DNA of 43,925 bases from a virus: the IMG/VR virus record IMGVR_UViG_3300044771_000011, positions 1 to 43,925 of that record, one strand, 5' to 3'. How positions within the stretch are numbered: the first letter of the stretch is position 1; every line of letters starts with the position of its first letter. Of this stretch, positions 3,039-19,396 are shown piece after piece. The position numbers and the translations under genes were made by a program. The notes below the pieces were generated by a model, which was not told the origin of the DNA, searched no databases, and worked only from the letters and a program-made list of their open reading frames with translations.

Positions 3039-5693
3039 ATGGCTAATATTTATACTAAACAATCTTCTTTTGCTAACGGTGAAGTTTCATATGACATGTG
3101 GGGGCGTGATGATTACGCCAAGTATTTTGTAAGTGCTAAGACGTTAGAAAACTTCATGCCATTGCCATATGGTGGAGCACAGAACAGACCAGGAACAAAG
3201 TTTATTGCAGAGGTAAAGGATTCATCAAAAAAGGTGAAACTTTTACCTTTTCAATTTAGTGTAGAACAGGCTTATATTATTGAGGCAGGAGAAAATTACT
3301 TCCGATATTATAAAGATGGTGGTCAGATCATTAATTCGACAGCTGATACCTGGGTAACTTCAACATCATATTCAATTGATGATTATGTAACTAATACTTT
3401 AATTTATCGTTGTATATTGGCGCATACATCGGGGGCAACAACTGAACCAGGAGTTGGAACATCGTGGGCAACATACTGGATTCAAAACGCAACAGTTGAA
3501 ACAACCACAACATATAATGAAGATTATTTATTTAATCTTAAAACAGCACAATCAGCCGATACTTTATATTTATGTAATTCTAATTACAAGCCTAAAACAT
3601 TGACTAGATCAAGTCATTACGACTGGACGTTAGCTGACTTTTCATACGAAAATGGACCATTCAGAGTTCAAAACATCACTTCTACTACCGTTACTCCTAG
3701 CGCTGTAACAGGAACAGGAATAACAGTAACAGCTTCATCTAGTATATTTACAACTAATCAAGTTGGATCTTTATTCCAAATTAGTCACGATGTAACAGGA
3801 CAAGCGTTAAATTTAACTCTTACTGCTACAACCACAAGTACTACAATAAAATGCAATGGTAATTGGGCATTAGTTACCCATGGATCATGGTCAGGAAAGA
3901 TAGAAGTACAATGGTCTAAAGATACAGGGGCAACGTGGCAAACAATACGTTCTTATACTTCCACTTCTGATATAAATATTAATGATTCTGGGAAAACAAG
4001 CGAATTGGTGTTACTAAGAATTAATTATACTCATATATCTGGTACCTGTTATGCTGATTTAAACGCCTATTCATTTGCTCATGATGGTGTTGTTGAGATA
4101 ACAGGGTATACCAGCGGAACGGTAGTAATCGGCAACGTATTAAAAGATATAGCTTTTCTTACTGCCACAAAAGATTGGGCAGAAGGATCATGGTCCACTA
4201 AAAACGGATACCCAAGTTGTGTTAAATTCTATCAGAATAGATTAGGATTTGCAGGAAGTACGAAGGATCCACTAACATTATGGTTATCACAAACAGGAGA
4301 CTATCCTAACTTTCTTGTTAATACCCCTACAGAGGATTCAGATTCTATAACAGCGCCACTTGTCAGTGAAGGAGTTAACTCCATTAGGTCAATGGTATCT
4401 ATCGGTAATATGATTGCATTTACAGCAGGTGGTACATGGAAAATAGGTACTGGTAGTGAAAGTTCTGCATTAACTCCTACTACTGTTAGAGCGTTACAAC
4501 AAGGATATATAGGGTCTTCAACACTTAACCCTATTATAGTTGGTAGTAGAATATTATATTGTCAAGAAATGGGTAGTACTGTACGAGATATTAGTTATCA
4601 ATTGGCTGATGATGTTTACAAGGGTGATGACATGACCATGTTGGCACGTCATTTGTTTAAAAATTATGATATTGTTGATTGGGCATTCCAGCAAGAACCT
4701 GACGGAATTGTATGGGCGGTAAGAAGTGATGGTATTCTACTTAGTTTCACTTATAACAAGGAACAAGATGTATACGCATGGGCTAGACACATAACTGACG
4801 GTGAATATGAGAGTGTCGTTGCTATACCAGGTAATGGTTATACAGAAATATACTTTGCTGTCAGAAGAGAAATAAACGGAGTATATAAAAGATACATTGA
4901 AAAGTTGGTCCCTAGAATGGTAACTACAGACCCTAGAGATCAGTTTTTTGTTGATTGTGGATTGACATTAGATAATCCAATTACAATAACAGGAGCAACG
5001 AAAACTAGTCCTGTTGTAATCACCGCCATTGCTCACGGGCTTACCAATGGAAATTTTGTTGACATATCAGACGTTAAAGGGATGACAGAATTAAACGGTA
5101 TGCGTTATAAGGTTGCTAATAAAACTACCGATACATTCCAATTAGTAAATATGGACACTGATATAAATATTGATGGTACAGGTTATACCACTTATAAATC
5201 AAGTGGATATGTACGAAAATGTGTTATTTCGGTATCTGGATTAAGCCATCTAGAAGGTGAAACAGTAACGATATTAGCTGATGGTAGTGTAAATAGCCCA
5301 CAGGTAGTAACCAGTGGAAGTGTAACACTTGATGATTATGCTAGTAGGGTGCATGTAGGACTGGGATATGAATGTAACTTAGAAACACTTAATATAGATT
5401 TCCCGATGAAAGACGGAACCATACAAGGACGTACAAAGGCAATTAGAAATGTTACTGTTAGGTTTGAAAATACTTATGGTGGTTTTGTTGGCATAAATGG
5501 TGATAATAACTTAGAAATAATTGAGCAAACATTATCGCCTATTATGGGTAAGCCAGGAGAATTAGTGACTGGTGATAAAAAAGTTTCACCTTACGCTGAA
5601 CTTGACACTAACGCAACTGTATATATTAGGCAATCAGATCCTTTGCCAATGACGGTACTTGCTATTATGTCGGAGATAGAAATCGGAGCGTGA
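3039..5693 (+). CDS. Tail tubular protein B / nozzle-like protein (T7 gp12 position)
   Basis: 884 aa. The N-terminus FANGEVSYDMWGRDDYAKY...ENF...GGAQNRPGT is characteristic of podoviral nozzle/stabilisation proteins. Contains a VITAIAHGLTNGNFVDISDVKGMTELNGMRYKV beta-domain motif. Confidence 0.55.
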   Translation: MANIYTKQSSFANGEVSYDMWGRDDYAKYFVSAKTLENFMPLPYGGAQNRPGTKFIAEVKDSSKKVKLLPFQFSVEQAYIIEAGENYFRYYKDGGQIINSTADTWVTSTSYSIDDYVTNTLIYRCILAHTSGATTEPGVGTSWATYWIQNATVETTTTYNEDYLFNLKTAQSADTLYLCNSNYKPKTLTRSSHYDWTLADFSYENGPFRVQNITSTTVTPSAVTGTGITVTASSSIFTTNQVGSLFQISHDVTGQALNLTLTATTTSTTIKCNGNWALVTHGSWSGKIEVQWSKDTGATWQTIRSYTSTSDININDSGKTSELVLLRINYTHISGTCYADLNAYSFAHDGVVEITGYTSGTVVIGNVLKDIAFLTATKDWAEGSWSTKNGYPSCVKFYQNRLGFAGSTKDPLTLWLSQTGDYPNFLVNTPTEDSDSITAPLVSEGVNSIRSMVSIGNMIAFTAGGTWKIGTGSESSALTPTTVRALQQGYIGSSTLNPIIVGSRILYCQEMGSTVRDISYQLADDVYKGDDMTMLARHLFKNYDIVDWAFQQEPDGIVWAVRSDGILLSFTYNKEQDVYAWARHITDGEYESVVAIPGNGYTEIYFAVRREINGVYKRYIEKLVPRMVTTDPRDQFFVDCGLTLDNPITITGATKTSPVVITAIAHGLTNGNFVDISDVKGMTELNGMRYKVANKTTDTFQLVNMDTDINIDGTGYTTYKSSGYVRKCVISVSGLSHLEGETVTILADGSVNSPQVVTSGSVTLDDYASRVHVGLGYECNLETLNIDFPMKDGTIQGRTKAIRNVTVRFENTYGGFVGINGDNNLEIIEQTLSPIMGKPGELVTGDKKVSPYAELDTNATVYIRQSDPLPMTVLAIMSEIEIGA

Positions 5694-5697
5694 TTAG

Positions 5698-6117
5698 ATG
5701 CTTAACTTAAGAGAAGCTACATTAGATGATTTTTCAAATTTTGAATTGCATCAAAAGAATATTGACGAATTAAAAGCTTATTTAACGGTTGAGATAGATG
5801 TAATTATGGCATTATTATGGGACAATTCGCAAGACAAGACAATAGTATTTATTGATGATAAGCCTGCTTGTTTGTTGGGTGTAATAAACTCAACAGAAGT
5901 ATGGCTTTTCTTTTCTAAAGATATTGATAAACTTCCTCTTAGCTTTTTCAAACTAGGAAAAAAATTTATTGCTAAATACGATTATTTGCAAGGACATATT
6001 TATTCAGAAAATACTTTCGCTTTGCAATGGGCAAAGTTCATGGGATTTACAATTGAAGAACCAAAACCATACGGAGAACAAGGTAAATTATTTCATAAAT
6101 TTTATAAATGGTGGTGA
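5698..6117 (+). CDS. Small virion-module protein (T7 gp13 position)
   Basis: 139 aa, lying directly between the nozzle gene and the internal virion protein genes. Function inferred from position only. Confidence 0.35.
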   Translation: MLNLREATLDDFSNFELHQKNIDELKAYLTVEIDVIMALLWDNSQDKTIVFIDDKPACLLGVINSTEVWLFFSKDIDKLPLSFFKLGKKFIAKYDYLQGHIYSENTFALQWAKFMGFTIEEPKPYGEQGKLFHKFYKWW

Positions 6118-6121
6118 TTAT

Positions 6122-6595
6122 ATGTGTGGACCAGGAGTGGGAATGATTGGTAATGTACTTGGTACTAGTATGCAAATGAATGCTGCAACAAATCAAGCAA
6201 ATTATCAAGCTGGTATTGCTAATCAGAATGCTTCGATAGCGCAGGCACAGGCAGTATCAACAGGGCAACAAGGAACTAATGAGCAAATACAGATCAGACA
6301 AAAAGCGACACAGGTTGCAGGATCTCAAAAGGCCGCACTTTCAGCAAGCGGATTAGACATTCAAGCAGGAACTCCACTATCAATATTGGCTGATACTGCT
6401 ACACAGAGCGAACAGGACGTACAGACGTCGCGTTATAATACAGCAATGCAGATGTGGGGATTAAATAATCAAGCGAATCAATATAAGGCAGAAGCATCAA
6501 ATGCAATACAGGCAGGAAAAAACGCTTCAAAGTCTGCTTTGCTTAGTGGTATTACTACCGCAGTAAAACAATATTCAGAATATAAAAAGAAATAA
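6122..6595 (+). CDS. Internal virion/ejection protein candidate (T7 gp14 position)
   Basis: GGTGGTGA SD lies 5 nt before ATG 6122. N-terminus MCGPGVGMIGNVLG is glycine-zipper-like; the rest is Q/A/N-rich. The track's longer ORF from 5969 overlaps the previous gene and has no SD. Confidence 0.4.
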   Translation: MCGPGVGMIGNVLGTSMQMNAATNQANYQAGIANQNASIAQAQAVSTGQQGTNEQIQIRQKATQVAGSQKAALSASGLDIQAGTPLSILADTATQSEQDVQTSRYNTAMQMWGLNNQANQYKAEASNAIQAGKNASKSALLSGITTAVKQYSEYKKK

Positions 6596-6611
6596 ATGGT
6601 GGTGAATTAAA

Positions 6612-8792
6612 TTGCCTACAGTTCCAATATATACTAATCAAGTACAACAACAGACGTTACCTAGTTTTAGAGTTCAATCTACCGCCCCTACAGAAGCGTT
6701 TGGTGGTGGATTAGGTCAAACAATCAGCAACATTGGTCAAGAAGCATTTAATATGCAACAGCAAGAACAGGCTAGACTTAATCAAATAGCAGTAGCAAAC
6801 GCAACTAGCAATACTCAAAAAGTATTAACTCCATTGCAAAATGATTTATTAACTAAAATGGGAACTAACGCATTAGGAACAGTAGAAACAAAAGATAATC
6901 CATCCACTCCAGCCATATCACAAGATTTTCAAAAGCAATCTGATAATATATATAAAACAACTTATGATTCTCTTTCTAACGAAACTCAAAAAACGCAATA
7001 TAAACAATGGTATGATTCTATTCATATAGGTATGTATCAATCAGTATTAAACCATGAAAAAAAACAAATAGAGGTCGCTCATACAGTTGCAAATGAATCA
7101 CAATTAAACTCCAATTCCGAGGCATTTACTTCGAATGTATTGATGGGTAATTACGCACAAGCAAATAATAGTTTGCGTTCTGGCATTGTTTTATCTGATT
7201 CTATGGGCAGCATTAATGGTGTTCCTAAAGAAACGCAAGATGAAAACCATAATAAATATATTTATGGAAACATTGGTAAGACTGTTGACATTTTGATTGC
7301 CAATAACAGGCCAGAAGATGCCAAGAAACTAATCGACTATTACGGTGATAAACTTCCAGAAGCGCAAAAGGCTATTAATATGTCAAAAATAAATCCTTCA
7401 TTAGAGAAAAATGAAACAGATACTTATGTTGAGTCACTAAAGAAAGATCCAACTATGATTAATCCTGATGGAACACCTAATGCAATAGCAATGAACGCAG
7501 CAGCAGAAGTTAAATATAGAAACAGAACAAGAACTGTAACTAAGCCTGGCACTCCTGGTGTTCCCGGTGCTGATAGTATGTATAATGCTGCGAAAATAGT
7601 TTCACAGCAAACAGGAATCCCAACAGATTTTATATATGGACAAATGTATCATGAGTCTGGTGGGTTTAATAGTCAGTTAGCAAGAGAAAATTTTAACTTT
7701 GCAGGACTTACACAAAACGAACCAAATGGCATAGAAAATAAACAGCCAGATGGTAGTAATTATTATAAACAATATAGTTCTGTCGAAGAATTTGCCAAAG
7801 ATTATGGAAAGTTTTTAAATAATTACAAAGGTTTATCTGGTGCAAAATCTCCTGCTGAATACGCAAAATTATTACATGATCAAGGATATTATGTAGAAGA
7901 CCCTAACCAAAAGACTCCCGAACAGGCTGTAAATGATTATACTGCTGGACTGAATAGCGGAATAAGTAATATAGGAACAGGGACAGGAGGAACGACAGGT
8001 ACACCAACAACCTATGAACAAGTACCATCACCAGATTTGATAGGATTACAATTAGCGAAGGCAAGAATAGCACAGGTTGTAGCCGAGGGTAATGCACAGC
8101 ATAAGCAAATGATAGATAATAATATGTATCAGTTCGATCAATGGCTTACGCAGACAAAGCCAACAACGGTATCGGCGATACAAGCACAGGCGCAGTCAAT
8201 GGGATTCCAAGGTCCTGACTTGATAAATGCCATTGCTAAAGGAAAACAATATGCTGGACTTCTTAAAGTAGAAGAAAATGAAAATAGTGCAGTATTGTTT
8301 GAAGAAGCATTAGGTAAAATGTATAACGGTGAAATAACTACCAAAGGAGAACTTGATTCACAATATGGCGGTTCTCTTCCATATAGCAAATTAATTACTC
8401 TTGGTAATTCATTAAAACGTGAAACTAAATGGGCAACTACCGAAAATTTAATGGCATTCAATGGCGTTATAAAAGACAAAGGAATTAAAAGCGGAACTGA
8501 AAAGACTAAAATATACGAAAAAATAAATCAACATGTAGCAGAAAATATGTCAAAAGGGATACCAATAACTTCACAAGATATAACTGATTGGGCGCAGGAA
8601 CAGACGCAAAAAGTAATATTAAGCAGAAATTATATTAGTAAAAACGAAACAATAGATACAGCGTTTATACCTAGTGTATGGAATATTACTTCTGAGGGAG
8701 TTTTCACCCCAGAAGGTATTCAAATTACCAAATCAAAAGACGGTAAATTCTATACTACTAAAAATGGTGTAGATATAGAAGTTCAACCATAA
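6612..8792 (+). CDS. Internal virion protein with a lysozyme-like (glucosaminidase/SLT superfamily) domain (T7 gp15 position)
   Basis: 726 aa with a TTG start after GGTGGTGA. The motif YGQMYHESGGFNSQLARENFNFAGLTQ matches the catalytic Glu-Ser region of FlgJ-type glucosaminidases and SLT enzymes. Confidence 0.65.
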   Translation: MPTVPIYTNQVQQQTLPSFRVQSTAPTEAFGGGLGQTISNIGQEAFNMQQQEQARLNQIAVANATSNTQKVLTPLQNDLLTKMGTNALGTVETKDNPSTPAISQDFQKQSDNIYKTTYDSLSNETQKTQYKQWYDSIHIGMYQSVLNHEKKQIEVAHTVANESQLNSNSEAFTSNVLMGNYAQANNSLRSGIVLSDSMGSINGVPKETQDENHNKYIYGNIGKTVDILIANNRPEDAKKLIDYYGDKLPEAQKAINMSKINPSLEKNETDTYVESLKKDPTMINPDGTPNAIAMNAAAEVKYRNRTRTVTKPGTPGVPGADSMYNAAKIVSQQTGIPTDFIYGQMYHESGGFNSQLARENFNFAGLTQNEPNGIENKQPDGSNYYKQYSSVEEFAKDYGKFLNNYKGLSGAKSPAEYAKLLHDQGYYVEDPNQKTPEQAVNDYTAGLNSGISNIGTGTGGTTGTPTTYEQVPSPDLIGLQLAKARIAQVVAEGNAQHKQMIDNNMYQFDQWLTQTKPTTVSAIQAQAQSMGFQGPDLINAIAKGKQYAGLLKVEENENSAVLFEEALGKMYNGEITTKGELDSQYGGSLPYSKLITLGNSLKRETKWATTENLMAFNGVIKDKGIKSGTEKTKIYEKINQHVAENMSKGIPITSQDITDWAQEQTQKVILSRNYISKNETIDTAFIPSVWNITSEGVFTPEGIQITKSKDGKFYTTKNGVDIEVQP

Positions 8793-17000: not shown

Positions 17001-17243
17001 ATGGAACATGTTTCAGAACTAATTAATCTATCATCAGAGATGATTAGTAAGACAGACAAAATCAATCAAAGACTCGTCAATGCCGTGATAGTATTATCCA
17101 TATCTTTTTCGTTATGTTTTACTATTACGGTAGTTGGTATTAGTTATTTTTATTTTACAACTGATTACGGCTTTGGAAGTGTGATCCAAAACCAAACAAA
17201 TACAGAAAATAGTAATCAAAATATTAATAAAGGAGATAAATAA
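17001..17243 (+). CDS. Small single-pass membrane protein (first gene of the lysis cassette)
   Basis: 80 aa. TM segment AVIVLSISFSLCFTITVVGISYFYF. AAAGGAGG SD. Confidence 0.5.
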   Translation: MEHVSELINLSSEMISKTDKINQRLVNAVIVLSISFSLCFTITVVGISYFYFTTDYGFGSVIQNQTNTENSNQNINKGDK

Positions 17244-17245
17244 CA

Positions 17246-17302
17246 ATGGCAAAACCAATTAAACCAGTAAAACCAACTAAACCAGGCAAAGGTGGCAATT
17301 AA
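17246..17302 (+). CDS. Micro-ORF encoding an 18-aa Lys/Pro-rich peptide (MAKPIKPVKPTKPGKGGN)
   Basis: AAAGGAGA lies 9 nt upstream. The ORF is built from four tandem 9-bp AAACCANNN units. Coding status is uncertain. Confidence 0.25.
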   Translation: MAKPIKPVKPTKPGKGGN

Positions 17303-17303
17303 T

Positions 17304-17588
17304 ATGGAAACATATCAATTACACACTGAAATAATAAAAAGAGTAGAAAAATGTGAAACAGACATTCGAGAATTGCAAAATAAAGATAATAAACTAACAA
17401 TACAGCAAGCTCAAGTAGATATAAAGTTAGATTACATTAAATCAGCTATAGAAAAATTAGGTGTAGAAGTTAGTAAAATAGCTGAACAACCAGCGAAACG
17501 GTGGGATACATTAATTAATGCAGCAATAGCCGGGGCAATATCATTAATTTTGTCTGGCAGTATCACTTTTGCATTGACTAAGCATTAG
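17304..17588 (+). CDS. XhlA-like lysis-associated protein (N-terminal coiled coil, C-terminal TM)
   Basis: 94 aa. Heptad-rich N-terminal half, then KRWDTLINAAIAGAISLILSGSITFAL. This architecture matches PBSX XhlA-family proteins. The ATG at 17304 follows AAAGGTGG. Confidence 0.5.
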   Translation: METYQLHTEIIKRVEKCETDIRELQNKDNKLTIQQAQVDIKLDYIKSAIEKLGVEVSKIAEQPAKRWDTLINAAIAGAISLILSGSITFALTKH

Positions 17589-17597
17589 GAGAAAAAT

Positions 17598-17819
17598 ATG
17601 ATTGAAAAAATAAAACAATTCATTTTACAGGACGTCCATATAACGGACGTCCTTTTTAGTTGCATATGGTTATTTGGCTGGTTTAATAATGCGGATCAAG
17701 CAGTAAAGTACGACCTTAATTCTCTGACCGTTTTTTATGGTGCGATACGGGTTTATATATTGGCTGGAAGGGTTAATGAGTCAGTAAATAACTCTAATAA
17801 AGGAGAGAAACCACAATGA
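17598..17819 (+). CDS. Holin candidate (two hydrophobic segments, charged C-terminus)
   Basis: 73 aa. Segments ITDVLFSCIWLFGWF and LTVFYGAIRVYILAG, with a polar/charged tail. Immediately upstream of and overlapping the endolysin gene. Confidence 0.45.
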   Translation: MIEKIKQFILQDVHITDVLFSCIWLFGWFNNADQAVKYDLNSLTVFYGAIRVYILAGRVNESVNNSNKGEKPQ

Positions 17820-18187
17820 GTAAATTCTTTAAAGGAACTGAATTTGCCTGCAATGGCCCAGAATGTGAAGGATTAATCAACGTAGGCAACGGTATTAGTC
17901 CTCGCTTAATGAATGTTCTGGACGCCATTAGAGAGCGTATAGGACAACCTATCTATATCAACTCTGGTTACAGATGCCCTGTGCATAATAAAGAAGTTGG
18001 AGGAGTTACTAATTCCCAACATGTTGACGGTACTGCAGCTGATTTAAATTATGACGGTATAGATGTTGATTACCTTGCGCAAGTAGCAGAAGAATGTGGT
18101 GCTGATGGTATAGGTAAATATTGGTCGCAAGGATTCGTGCATGTTGACGTGAGGGGTTATGCTGCAAGGTGGAGTGAAAATGATTAG
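17816..18187 (+). CDS. Endolysin, peptidase M15 family (single catalytic domain, no wall-binding domain)
   Basis: SGYRCPVHNKEVGGVTNSQHVDGTAADL and FVHVDVR match the zinc-binding H/D/H motifs of M15A/M15C D-Ala-D-Ala and L-Ala-D-Glu peptidases. 123 aa. Confidence 0.8.
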   Translation: MSKFFKGTEFACNGPECEGLINVGNGISPRLMNVLDAIRERIGQPIYINSGYRCPVHNKEVGGVTNSQHVDGTAADLNYDGIDVDYLAQVAEECGADGIGKYWSQGFVHVDVRGYAARWSEND

Positions 18188-18557
18188 TGAAGTGAGGGAA
18201 TATATAAATGCAAATAAGAAGAACATTATCATTATTTGTGTGTTGCTTATTGTTATTGTCGTTGCCTGGGATGTGTTCGGCAGCAAGTTATCAAATACAG
18301 GATCAGGAGCTGATACAGCTAGACAACAACTTAACACTGTTATCAATCAACAATCAGAATCTATTAATACAATTAAAACAGTCGAAACAGGACTTGGGAA
18401 TAGCATCAAGTCAGTTGGAACAATTGAAAGCACAGTTGATCACGCTACAGTTACAAACTCAAACAGCATTGCAACAGCAACAGACAGCGCAAGCATCATT
18501 GCAGACTGCCAACGCATCCTTAAATCAGTACGAGAAAGAGACAAAAGCAAAAATTAG
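18180..18557 (+). CDS. Type II membrane protein downstream of the endolysin (i-spanin-like candidate)
   Basis: AAGGTGGAG SD lies 5 nt before ATG 18180, and the ORF overlaps the endolysin stop. N-terminal TM segment NIIIICVLLIVIVVAWDVF. Third-position GC is about 26% by hand count, typical for this genome. Confidence 0.5.
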   Translation: MISEVREYINANKKNIIIICVLLIVIVVAWDVFGSKLSNTGSGADTARQQLNTVINQQSESINTIKTVETGLGNSIKSVGTIESTVDHATVTNSNSIATATDSASIIADCQRILKSVRERDKSKN

Positions 18558-18621
18558 ATCAGTTGCTTTGCAACGAGATATTGCTATTGTGGGAATAGTT
18601 GCAATGTTCTTTAGGAAATAA
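18208..18621 (+). CDS. Overprinted ORF in the +1 frame: signal-like N-terminus, coiled coil, C-terminal TM (spanin-like candidate)
   Basis: 137 codons open in an AT-rich genome. GAGGGA lies 9 nt upstream. N-terminus MQIRRTLSLFVCCLLLLSLPGMCSAAS, heptad Q/L-rich core, C-terminus IAIVGIVAMFFRK. Extends 64 nt beyond the overlapping ORF. Confidence 0.4.
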   Translation: MQIRRTLSLFVCCLLLLSLPGMCSAASYQIQDQELIQLDNNLTLLSINNQNLLIQLKQSKQDLGIASSQLEQLKAQLITLQLQTQTALQQQQTAQASLQTANASLNQYEKETKAKIRSVALQRDIAIVGIVAMFFRK

Positions 18622-18733
18622 TTTTTAAACCTCTCGAATTCGACGGGTTTAGATTTGCCACCGACATCAATGTCGGCGACAACCATCCGGGAATATAGGA
18701 CAGTTCAACCGTTCAGTTTTATTTAATAGTTCA

Positions 18734-18773
18734 AAAGCCGTCTGCCTTTAATTAGGTTGACGGCTTTTTTGTT
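18734..18773 (+). terminator. Rho-independent terminator closing the late (virion plus lysis) operon
   Basis: AAAGCCGTC, 16-nt loop, GACGGCTTT, then TTTTGTTT. Confidence 0.7.
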
Positions 18774-18831
18774 TAACTACTTAGTATATGCAATTAACTG
18801 ACAAATTATACTATCGTTTTAAAAATAATTA

Positions 18832-18976
18832 TGTTATAATAAATAAAACACCTAACAACTCTAGTAAAGTCGTTAGGCAAGTTTACCCTCGGTCAGGAGG
18901 GCTAGGTAATTAAGTTACCCGTATTGTAACATACAACCTCCTGCCGAGTCAATAATTTGGTAGGAGGTTTTTTATA
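18832..18976 (+). promoter_or_regulatory. Extended -10 promoter plus a roughly 130-nt structured leader with mutually exclusive terminator and antiterminator helices
   Basis: Promoter TGTTATAAT at 18832-18840. Hairpins at 18851-18877, 18886-18901 and 18905-18919. Terminator pairs 18935-18948 with 18956-18969, followed by a T-run. Alternative helix pairs 18888-18900 with 18937-18948. Confidence 0.5.
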
Positions 18977-19396
18977 TTGAAAGAAGTAAATGTATTTAAA
19001 AACAAGACTATGGTTGATACTAGGGATGATTTAAGGATAATTTATTTTTTAATCAAGAAAGATAAGGTTGTATATGTTGGTCAATCAAACGTTGGATTAT
19101 CTAGGATTTATCAACATGTGGTTGCAAATAAAAAGGATTTTGATTCGTTTAGTTATATTAAAGTTAATAATGATGAAGACTTAGACCTATTAGAAGCTGA
19201 TTACATTATAAAGTTTGACCCTATTTATAACCTTAAAATACACAGTAATAAATATTATAAATCATTAGATTCAATAAAGAAAATATTAAACATTGGCAAA
19301 AATGATTTAAATAAAATTATCAGACACAAAGAAATAAAGCCTGTGTTTTCTGGGGTATATGATATAAGAGATTTTCCTTGTGAGGTTGAATTATGA
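18977..19396 (+). CDS. GIY-YIG domain protein with a C-terminal HTH-like tail
   Basis: RIIYFLIKKDKVVYVGQSNVGLSRIYQH...LLEADYIIKFDPIYN keeps the Y, Y-x-G, R, E and N positions of GIY-YIG nucleases. TTG start lies 8 nt after AGGAGG. Confidence 0.5.
   Translation: MKEVNVFKNKTMVDTRDDLRIIYFLIKKDKVVYVGQSNVGLSRIYQHVVANKKDFDSFSYIKVNNDEDLDLLEADYIIKFDPIYNLKIHSNKYYKSLDSIKKILNIGKNDLNKIIRHKEIKPVFSGVYDIRDFPCEVEL

Follow-up and report, generated by a model that had tools for sequence, protein, structure and literature searches.

What are two almost completely superimposed genes for membrane-targeted proteins doing at the end of a phage lysis cassette, and are both of them genes at all? The question is raised by a stretch of viral DNA of 43,925 nucleotides (nt), positions 1 to 43,925 of the IMG/VR record IMGVR_UViG_3300044771_000011 and hereafter the window, in which two open reading frames (ORFs), A and B, follow the endolysin gene on the + strand and share most of their length. 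The comparisons set out below leave very little doubt that A and B are both genuine genes. Their products are read here, with a probability of roughly 0.55, as a lipoprotein-independent, spanin-like outer-membrane disruptor of phages of the Negativicutes, encoded by two almost fully overlapping genes.

Gene A (18180..18557, + strand) runs from an ATG at 18180 to a stop codon at 18555-18557, and a Shine-Dalgarno-like GGTGGAG (18168..18174, +) can be read directly in the sequence with a 5-nt spacer to its start. Gene B (18208..18621, +), which lies in the +1 frame relative to A, runs from an ATG at 18208 to a stop codon at 18619-18621 and is preceded by a Shine-Dalgarno-like GAGGGA of its own (18194..18199, +), likewise read directly, with a spacer of 8 nt. 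The overlap is 350 nt long (18208..18557, +) and takes up ~85-92% of both genes, the +1 gene being the longer one; its assignment as dual-coding draws on the ORF coordinates, recoding nulls and substitution tests. Both ORFs, their coordinates, the Shine-Dalgarno motifs and the peptide features quoted in an earlier note, made from the letters of the window, stand as first described. Its third-position guanine-plus-cytosine (GC) contents, about 26% for A and about 44% for B, needed correction, as the actual values are 31.7% and 38.4% against a genome mean of 27.3% (standard deviation 4.4).

Protein searches returned the A homologues P0002 and P0003 and, separately, the B homologue P0004, and the DNA was then fetched. 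Fifteen loci were compared, namely the window, L001 to L003, two contigs of Pelosinus propionicus (L004 and L005), an IMG/VR contig (L006), L008 and L009 to L015, which together span GC contents of 34-51% and protein identities down to ~25-30%. Frames A and B are both open in 15/15 loci, and stop codons in frame B of relatives, which the earlier note had named as counting against the pair, were found in none. This holds for the distant contig L008, in which A is just ~30% identical, and for L009 to L015, seven distant B-family loci with fetchable DNA and a GC content of up to 51%, where the A phase is open for 123-161 codons and encodes recognisable A features. The third frame is broken throughout, its open runs at mid-overlap in these seven being 6-22 codons long. 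Within the other long ORFs of the window, the longest alternative-frame open run is 82 codons, as against ~116 at A/B.

Chance openness is hard to reconcile with two null models. Recoding with random synonymous codons drawn according to genome usage leaves either frame open with a probability of at most 0.0005 (eight loci, both directions). Under a more conservative null, in which the synonymous codons of a gene are permuted only among its own sites of the same amino acid, 1.7-4.7 stops are expected per locus in frame A, with a probability of remaining open of 0.0003-0.13, and 0.75-3.7 stops in frame B, with a probability of 0.0003-0.40; none is observed in either frame across the 15 loci.

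The pattern of substitutions carries the argument further. Among the seven closer sequences, the mean pairwise differences at codon positions 1, 2 and 3 of B are 0.173, 0.170 and 0.268, so that the third position of A, which is the second of B, is the least variable, and coding by A only is thereby ruled out. Synonymous differences at identical residues amount to 0.02-0.27 in A and 0.18-0.55 in B, while flanking control genes of similar protein identity, compared over the same locus pairs, show fractions of mostly 0.3-0.65. The earlier note had pointed to the synonymous sites of frame A as a place to look for constraint, and suppression there is strong; at the synonymous sites of B it is moderate in most pairs, not in all. 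In a shadow test of 76 distant pairs with a B identity of 25-50%, the expectation for one frame was taken from the protein of the other frame with permuted synonymous codons. The mature region of A is about twice as identical as expected from the B protein, with a median BLOSUM z of 5.1 and z>2 in 76/76 pairs, and, with the frames exchanged, B reaches a median BLOSUM z of 4.8 and z>2 in every one of the 76; the pairs are phylogenetically non-independent, so the z values are not exact probabilities, and their direction is uniform. Overall, these patterns point to purifying selection on A and B alike, with the tighter constraint on B.

Two simpler accounts of the overlap were considered and set aside. 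That one frame is open through composition alone is rejected by the recoding, permutation and shadow nulls alike. That A is the primary gene and B is overprinted upon it, as the earlier note had supposed, is contradicted by the codon-position variability, which runs the opposite way: the third position is the least variable in A and the most variable in B.

The product of gene A is predicted, from the ORF and an AlphaFold2 model, to be a type II (N-in) membrane protein of 125 residues with a transmembrane segment at about residues 15-33 and a long periplasmic helix at 41-123. The model (predicted local distance difference test, pLDDT, 77.5) places a transmembrane helix at 13-34 and the second helix at 41-123, and the sequence has a hydrophobic 19-mer at residues 15-33 with KK before it. 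A profile search gathers 249 representative clusters of 105-160 residues, mostly matched over most of their length; an N-terminal transmembrane segment is present in 147/152 members and K/R ahead of it in 143/152. The conserved blocks are SDNG.G.D..R..L after the transmembrane segment, QQ.AI..L..IE.GL in the middle and LIA[DE][CGS]Q.IL..VR.RG at the C-terminus, and a periplasmic Cys is found in only about half of the family. This predicted layout, a single N-in transmembrane domain at the N-terminus followed by a helical periplasmic domain, is that of an Rz-type inner-membrane spanin (i-spanin).

Gene B is predicted, from the ORF, an AlphaFold2 model and its family, to encode an exported coiled-coil protein of 137 residues. 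Residues 1-25 (18208..18282, +) look like a signal peptide, with a basic n-region, a 13-residue h-region, a Pro and Cys/Ala at -3/-1, ending in LPGMCSA ahead of AS. Across the family, the h-region has 13-18 residues, and 115/115 members have small residues at -3 and -1, as in sites for signal peptidase I. The signal is rich in Leu, Phe, Ser and Cys because it is written in the same T-rich DNA as the transmembrane segment of A, the codons of B starting with T where position 2 of the A codon is T. Judging from the sequence, the signal peptide is probably cleaved, and the membrane that holds B in its final state is a matter of similar judgement. A canonical lipobox, [LVI][ASTVI][GAS]C, occurs in 0/115 members of the B family, the window reading LPGM-C, and a Cys near the end of the signal is present in 55/115 and missing in 60/115. 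A lipoprotein identity for B, along with the lipoprotein or unimolecular-spanin type of outer-membrane signal that the earlier note had proposed for it, is rejected on these counts, and the lack of a lipobox means that B is not a canonical outer-membrane spanin (o-spanin) or unimolecular spanin (u-spanin).

Beyond the signal, the B model is one continuous helix from residue 32 to 136 (pLDDT 90.7). Mature B, of ~112 residues, is predicted to be a single helix, and a Pro occurs in the coiled-coil part in 1/115 members. The profile search gives 260 matches of 130-161 residues, with a conserved mature N-terminus, TYxITExELTQLExNL, and a further conserved block after the long helix, L..AN.S...EEKRTRLRIKAQRN. 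The protein ends in the hydrophobic segment IAIVGIVAMFF (18580..18612, +), followed by RK. Where the earlier note had placed a C-terminal transmembrane segment, the hydrophobic stretch of the window has just 11 residues. In the family, the uncharged tail is always present, Ala/Gly-rich, 11-16 residues long (median 15) and terminated by K or HR, and a polybasic stretch with a median of 6 K/R in 14 residues precedes it.

Family searches say little about either protein. A matches phrog_18860, a PHROG without an assigned function; apart from it, no significant family for A or B came out of Pfam, NCBIfam or PHROG, and neither family carries a curated annotation. The weak matches of both families fall mostly on Rz-like spanin PHROGs: those of A are scattered over six of them (E ~1e-4), and B members align to Rz-like PHROG profiles over the N-terminal hydrophobic segment and first coiled coil. 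Other matches, to SMC, tropomyosin, ATG16 and ATP synthase b, were discarded as coiled-coil noise, and a chemoreceptor match of A (2.8e-8) is attributed to its small-residue coiled-coil composition. Profile searches of PDB sequences with A and B returned coiled coils only, and Foldseek produced no usable match in BFVD, which is what single long helices would lead one to expect. A scan of metagenome contigs with the A profile yielded no confirmed locus; blastn with the region and tblastn with A- and B-type proteins against 50,697 GenBank phage records found no relatives.

How the two frames are translated together may be glimpsed from their starts. In the window, the start of A overlaps the stop codon of the endolysin gene, which suggests translational coupling, and in relatives the preceding gene often stops right where A begins or just inside it. 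The ATG of A is followed 10 nt on by a TTG for B (ATG-N7-TTG) in six of the 15 loci; the pattern is ATGxATG in three and ATGTG in two, and in four, the window among them, the starts lie 25-40 nt apart. At 11/15 loci the starts are out of frame at offsets of -10, -4 or +2 nt; examples are the start regions of L002 (5995-6013), L008 (4950-4956) and L011 (4001-4005). Where the starts are clustered, there is usually only one recognisable Shine-Dalgarno-like motif, abutting the start of A. Out-of-frame starts a few nucleotides apart behind a single ribosome-binding site suggest that the choice of start codon determines how much A is made relative to B.

Automatic annotation reports one frame per locus, and different pipelines picked different frames. 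The Joint Genome Institute (JGI) call for the window (P0001, 18159-18557) begins inside the endolysin gene and not at 18180. The automatic names given to P0001 and its relatives clash, ranging over 'negative regulator of RcsB-dependent stress response', 'septal ring factor EnvC' and 'chromosome segregation ATPase', and none is backed by a family match.

The setting of the pair is what ties it to lysis. A and B lie directly 3' of the endolysin gene in 15/15 loci whose neighbourhoods otherwise differ, and the endolysin itself is M15 in the window, GH25 in L001, of glucosaminidase type in L002 to L006, Amidase_2 or Amidase_3 in L009 to L015 and, in L008, a 146-residue protein without an assigned family. 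The endolysin genes of two relatives lie at 5140-5709 (L001) and 5294-5716 (L002). With the endolysin swapped between no fewer than five unrelated kinds of catalytic domain, recombination has evidently acted separately on it and on the A/B module.

The only named sources of related loci are Pelosinus propionicus DSM 13327 (Selenomonadales) and Succiniclasticum ruminis or Succiniclasticum sp. (Acidaminococcales), both of the class Negativicutes, Firmicutes with an outer membrane; a host with an outer membrane is what the earlier note had predicted. The A/B pair of the window is ~60% identical to those of the Pelosinus prophages, and L003 combines the holin-like gene of the window (63%) with the Pelosinus endolysin (82%), which together make a Negativicute host likely for the window. 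The L003 contig (GCA_040384185.1, contig JAWVGY010018572.1) is 3.6 kb long; after its lysis genes it passes, at ~1575-1900, into a stretch of N and GC-rich sequence of another character, and it may be chimeric or scaffolded. Negativicutes have an outer membrane with lipopolysaccharide, and neither LolA nor LolB is found in any Negativicute genome (Antunes et al., 2016; PMC5007114). Without LolA and LolB, no route is known by which a Lol-sorted o-spanin could get to the outer membrane, so that a solution without a lipoprotein becomes plausible.

Comparison with known systems places the pair near the spanins and outside each of their classes. Two-component and unimolecular spanins are defined by their membrane signals, and an outer-membrane lipoprotein signal is required in both; Rz itself belongs to the class II inner-membrane proteins and has coiled coils in its periplasmic part, and the Rz1 gene uses the +1 frame relative to Rz (Kongari et al., 2018; PMC6139136). 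As in lambda Rz/Rz1, the two genes of the A/B pair are the last ones of the lysis cassette and the second is in +1, A is predicted to be N-in/C-out with a helical coiled-coil periplasmic domain, and the host has an outer membrane; weak profile matches of both proteins to Rz-like PHROGs no more than hint at homology. In contrast, Rz1 is a short, Pro-rich outer-membrane lipoprotein with a largely unstructured mature domain, whereas B has 130-160 residues, is all-helical, with one predicted helix as its mature domain, and carries a signal of the signal peptidase I type and a hydrophobic C-terminal tail. Further, the overlap is near-total here with the +1 gene the longer, the conserved blocks of the A and B proteins fall on the same DNA while those of Rz/Rz1 are reported to alternate (Kongari et al., 2018; PMC6139136), and the hosts of A/B are Firmicutes without LolA/LolB (PMC5007114).

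The u-spanin gp11 of phage T1 resembles B in having an N-terminal export signal and a C-terminal hydrophobic segment and in following the endolysin. It differs in that B has no lipobox in any of the 115 members, is one long alpha-helix where gp11 has a mainly beta periplasmic domain, ends in a C-terminal segment of 11-16 residues with its basic flank on the periplasmic side, and is always accompanied by the overlapping A. The phiKT gp28 'disruptin' offers a precedent for outer-membrane disruption by a non-lipoprotein in phages without spanins, and B likewise has a cationic segment beside a hydrophobic tail. However, gp28 is described as a single-gene cationic antimicrobial peptide, whereas A and B are two genes whose products each have a membrane-targeting segment and a helix of ~80-100 residues, with no sequence relationship to gp28. 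A dual start is also known from lambda S105/S107, where, as here, two products begin a few bases apart behind one ribosome-binding region. S105 and S107, however, share a reading frame and are almost the same protein, whereas the out-of-frame starts of A and B yield two unrelated products.

The spanin-type reading of the earlier note therefore holds for the place of the pair, its topology, its +1 overlap and its diderm host, and fails in membership of a known spanin class, for which the lipoprotein signal is decisive. What remains would be a candidate mechanism of the following kind. A and B would be translated together from closely spaced out-of-frame starts in one initiation region. A would be anchored N-in in the cytoplasmic membrane and send its 83-residue helix (~12 nm) into the periplasm, while B would be exported through a cleavable Sec signal of the signal peptidase I type and form a periplasmic helix of ~100 residues (~15 nm), held on a membrane by its polybasic stretch and short Ala/Gly-rich tail with its mature N-terminus free. 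That tail could alternatively be a releasable anchor. The two helices may associate into a periplasm-crossing coiled-coil complex, the contact being made between LIA[DE][CGS]Q.IL..VR.RG at the C-terminus of A and TYxITExELTQLExNL at the mature N-terminus of B.

Two geometries may be envisaged. In the first, both proteins would sit in the inner membrane and run antiparallel over ~13-15 nm, so that a tip formed by the C-terminus of A and the N-terminus of B attacks the outer membrane. In the second, A would remain in the inner membrane and the tail of B would insert into the inner leaflet of the outer membrane, the helices meeting end to end (~12 + 15 nm) through the same two motifs. In either case, the peptidoglycan meshwork would restrain the complex, which would act after the endolysin, as has been proposed for Rz/Rz1: once the peptidoglycan is removed, the complex may disrupt the outer membrane or fuse it. 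A further-reaching version, which we put forward tentatively and hold a little below even odds, is that A/B founds a lipoprotein-independent spanin class specific to diderm Firmicutes, in which two antiparallel-oriented, membrane-anchored coiled coils, written in two frames of ~350 nt behind one shared ribosome-binding region, would bridge or fuse the membranes without a Lol-sorted lipid anchor; the overlap would then rank among the longest and most deeply conserved dual-coding regions of phages.

Several points weigh against an outer-membrane disruptor. Neither A nor B showed homology to a characterised spanin in the PHROG, Pfam, NCBIfam or structure searches, and the matches to Rz-like PHROGs are weak (E ~1e-4 to 1e-5) and may reflect transmembrane and coiled-coil composition alone. 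B is without the lipoprotein signal that every known o- or u-spanin requires (PMC6139136). Should both proteins be anchored in the inner membrane, a helix pair of 12-15 nm may fail to reach the outer one, and the strongly basic periplasmic flank of the C-terminal segment of B is unusual for a stop-transfer anchor. Moreover, the Negativicute host of the window phage is no more than likely, by way of its relatives.

The cassette of which the pair is the last element occupies positions 17001-18621 of a ~44 kb phage genome with roughly 35% GC and every gene on the + strand. It opens with a small membrane protein of 80 residues (17001..17243, +), an ORF with a hydrophobic segment that is 70% identical to its L002 homologue and found no match in family searches. 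An XhlA-like coiled-coil protein with a C-terminal membrane segment follows (17304..17588, +; phrog_937, 'hemolysin', E=2.6e-8), with a directly matched counterpart of 60% identity at 4783-5067 in L002; the cassettes of L001 and L002 likewise hold coiled-coil proteins of 90-91 residues with a C-terminal transmembrane segment. Next comes a holin-like small membrane protein of 73 residues (17598..17819, +), with a weak match to the holin/antiholin phrog_5871 (E=0.15) and 63% identity to the L003 ORF just before the endolysin; the 5' part of its gene holds a terminator-like hairpin at 17629-17653 (9-bp stem with 6 GC pairs, then a T-run). The endolysin (17816..18187, +) is a single-domain Peptidase_M15_3 of 123 residues (Pfam PF08291, E=7e-25; phrog_894, endolysin, E=2e-36).

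It is against this background that a role in timing has to be weighed. A and B might regulate lysis timing or the activity of endolysin or holin, as an antiholin, a holin accessory or a tether/releasing factor, and break no outer membrane; this rival survives best, and is unlikely. In its favour, both are small membrane proteins within lysis cassettes that also contain the XhlA-like membrane protein, and the short Ala/Gly-rich C-terminal segment of B resembles, by our own inference, the weakly hydrophobic anchors that can be released. However, holin candidates are already present upstream, and a separate holin stands besides A/B elsewhere, for example Phage_holin_4_1 in L010. Both products are, moreover, predicted to be mostly long periplasmic helices, not the compact layout of several transmembrane segments or a cytoplasmic tail seen in holins and antiholins, and a place after the endolysin with a +1 overlap is that of spanin genes.

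Ranked next, and improbable as well, is the idea that B alone is the membrane-spanning effector, a lipid-free u-spanin analogue of reversed polarity with its N-terminal end in the inner membrane and its C-terminal tail in the outer, A being an accessory or regulator. Hydrophobic segments at both ends of B with a continuous helix of ~105 residues between them, the tighter constraint on its frame and the span of its Rz-like alignments would all suit such a protein, but a helix of ~15 nm is short for the whole periplasm. The N-terminal segment of B, moreover, resembles a cleavable signal in its 13-18-residue h-region, its Pro and its A-x-A-type site (115/115), and A, present wherever B is, shows purifying selection of its own.

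Far less probable is that the pair is a moron of some kind, for instance one that excludes superinfecting phages or modifies the envelope, and lies at the end of the late operon by chance. One weak match of A to a superinfection-exclusion PHROG (E=0.067) hints at it, and genes at this place beside lysogeny or plasmid-partition modules are sometimes morons; the pair, however, is tightly linked to the endolysin and not to the variable downstream genes in 15/15 loci, and its starts appear to be coupled to translation of the lysis gene before them. That B is the sole coding frame, with A open as a by-product of the Q/L/T/A-rich composition of B, is scarcely credible: it is prompted by the most variable third position of B, by a codon-position pattern of A that is atypical of a gene and by gene callers that choose one frame per locus, and it founders on A being open in 15/15 loci against the 1.7-4.7 stops expected under permutation of the synonymous codons of B, on a conservation of A about twice the shadow of B, with z>2 in all 76 distant pairs, and on the N-terminal transmembrane segment, basic N-flank and C-terminal motif of A kept in 147/152 members.

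Around the cassette, a few further features deserve mention. The lysis transcription unit appears to end at a terminator-like hairpin and T-run (18733..18774, +; RNA fold of 18622-18785, z = -4.26), whose final stem (18733-18768) reads AAAAGCCGUC...GACGGCUUUU followed by U's. The 355 non-coding nt 3' of gene B (18622-18976) are strongly structured, with several hairpins ahead of that stem and a further terminator-like hairpin at 18935-18969, and positions 18616-18768 give a sub-threshold Rfam match to the small RNA family tsr25 (25 bits against a gathering score of 63, E = 0.0045). No transfer RNA or Rfam element was found in the A/B overlap when these were sought there. Past the intergenic region, an ORF of 139 residues (18977-19396) is 88% identical to positions 6859-7278 of L002, while neighbouring genes reach just 52-70%. 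In L001, the gene directly 3' of the A/B pair (6517-7248) encodes a GDSL-family lipase/esterase of 243 residues with an N-terminal hydrophobic segment, which could be a further envelope-directed lysis enzyme or a receptor-modifying one. ParA/CbiA partition genes near the cassette in L001 and L002 hint at a plasmid-prophage lifestyle. The portal protein of the window is ~33% identical to portals of podoviruses of Proteobacteria, and portal and endolysin searches placed the window phage just distantly, among such podoviruses.

Spanins or outer-membrane disruption in phages of Negativicutes were not addressed in any paper found in a literature search, and a survey of Negativicute prophages never mentions spanins. 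The best reading of what is new here is a spanin-like module that would be lipoprotein-independent, almost fully dual-coded and outside the known spanin classes. The locus also exposes a blind spot of gene callers, by which only one of two frames is annotated. With ~115 codons, hundreds of family members and constraint on both frames, it is an unusually clean case of near-total dual coding and should serve well in work on the co-evolution of two coiled-coil proteins within a single stretch of DNA. Finally, a conserved, endolysin-linked pair of non-lipoproteins provides a concrete candidate for the step by which the phages of Negativicutes would pass the outer membrane on their way out of the cell.

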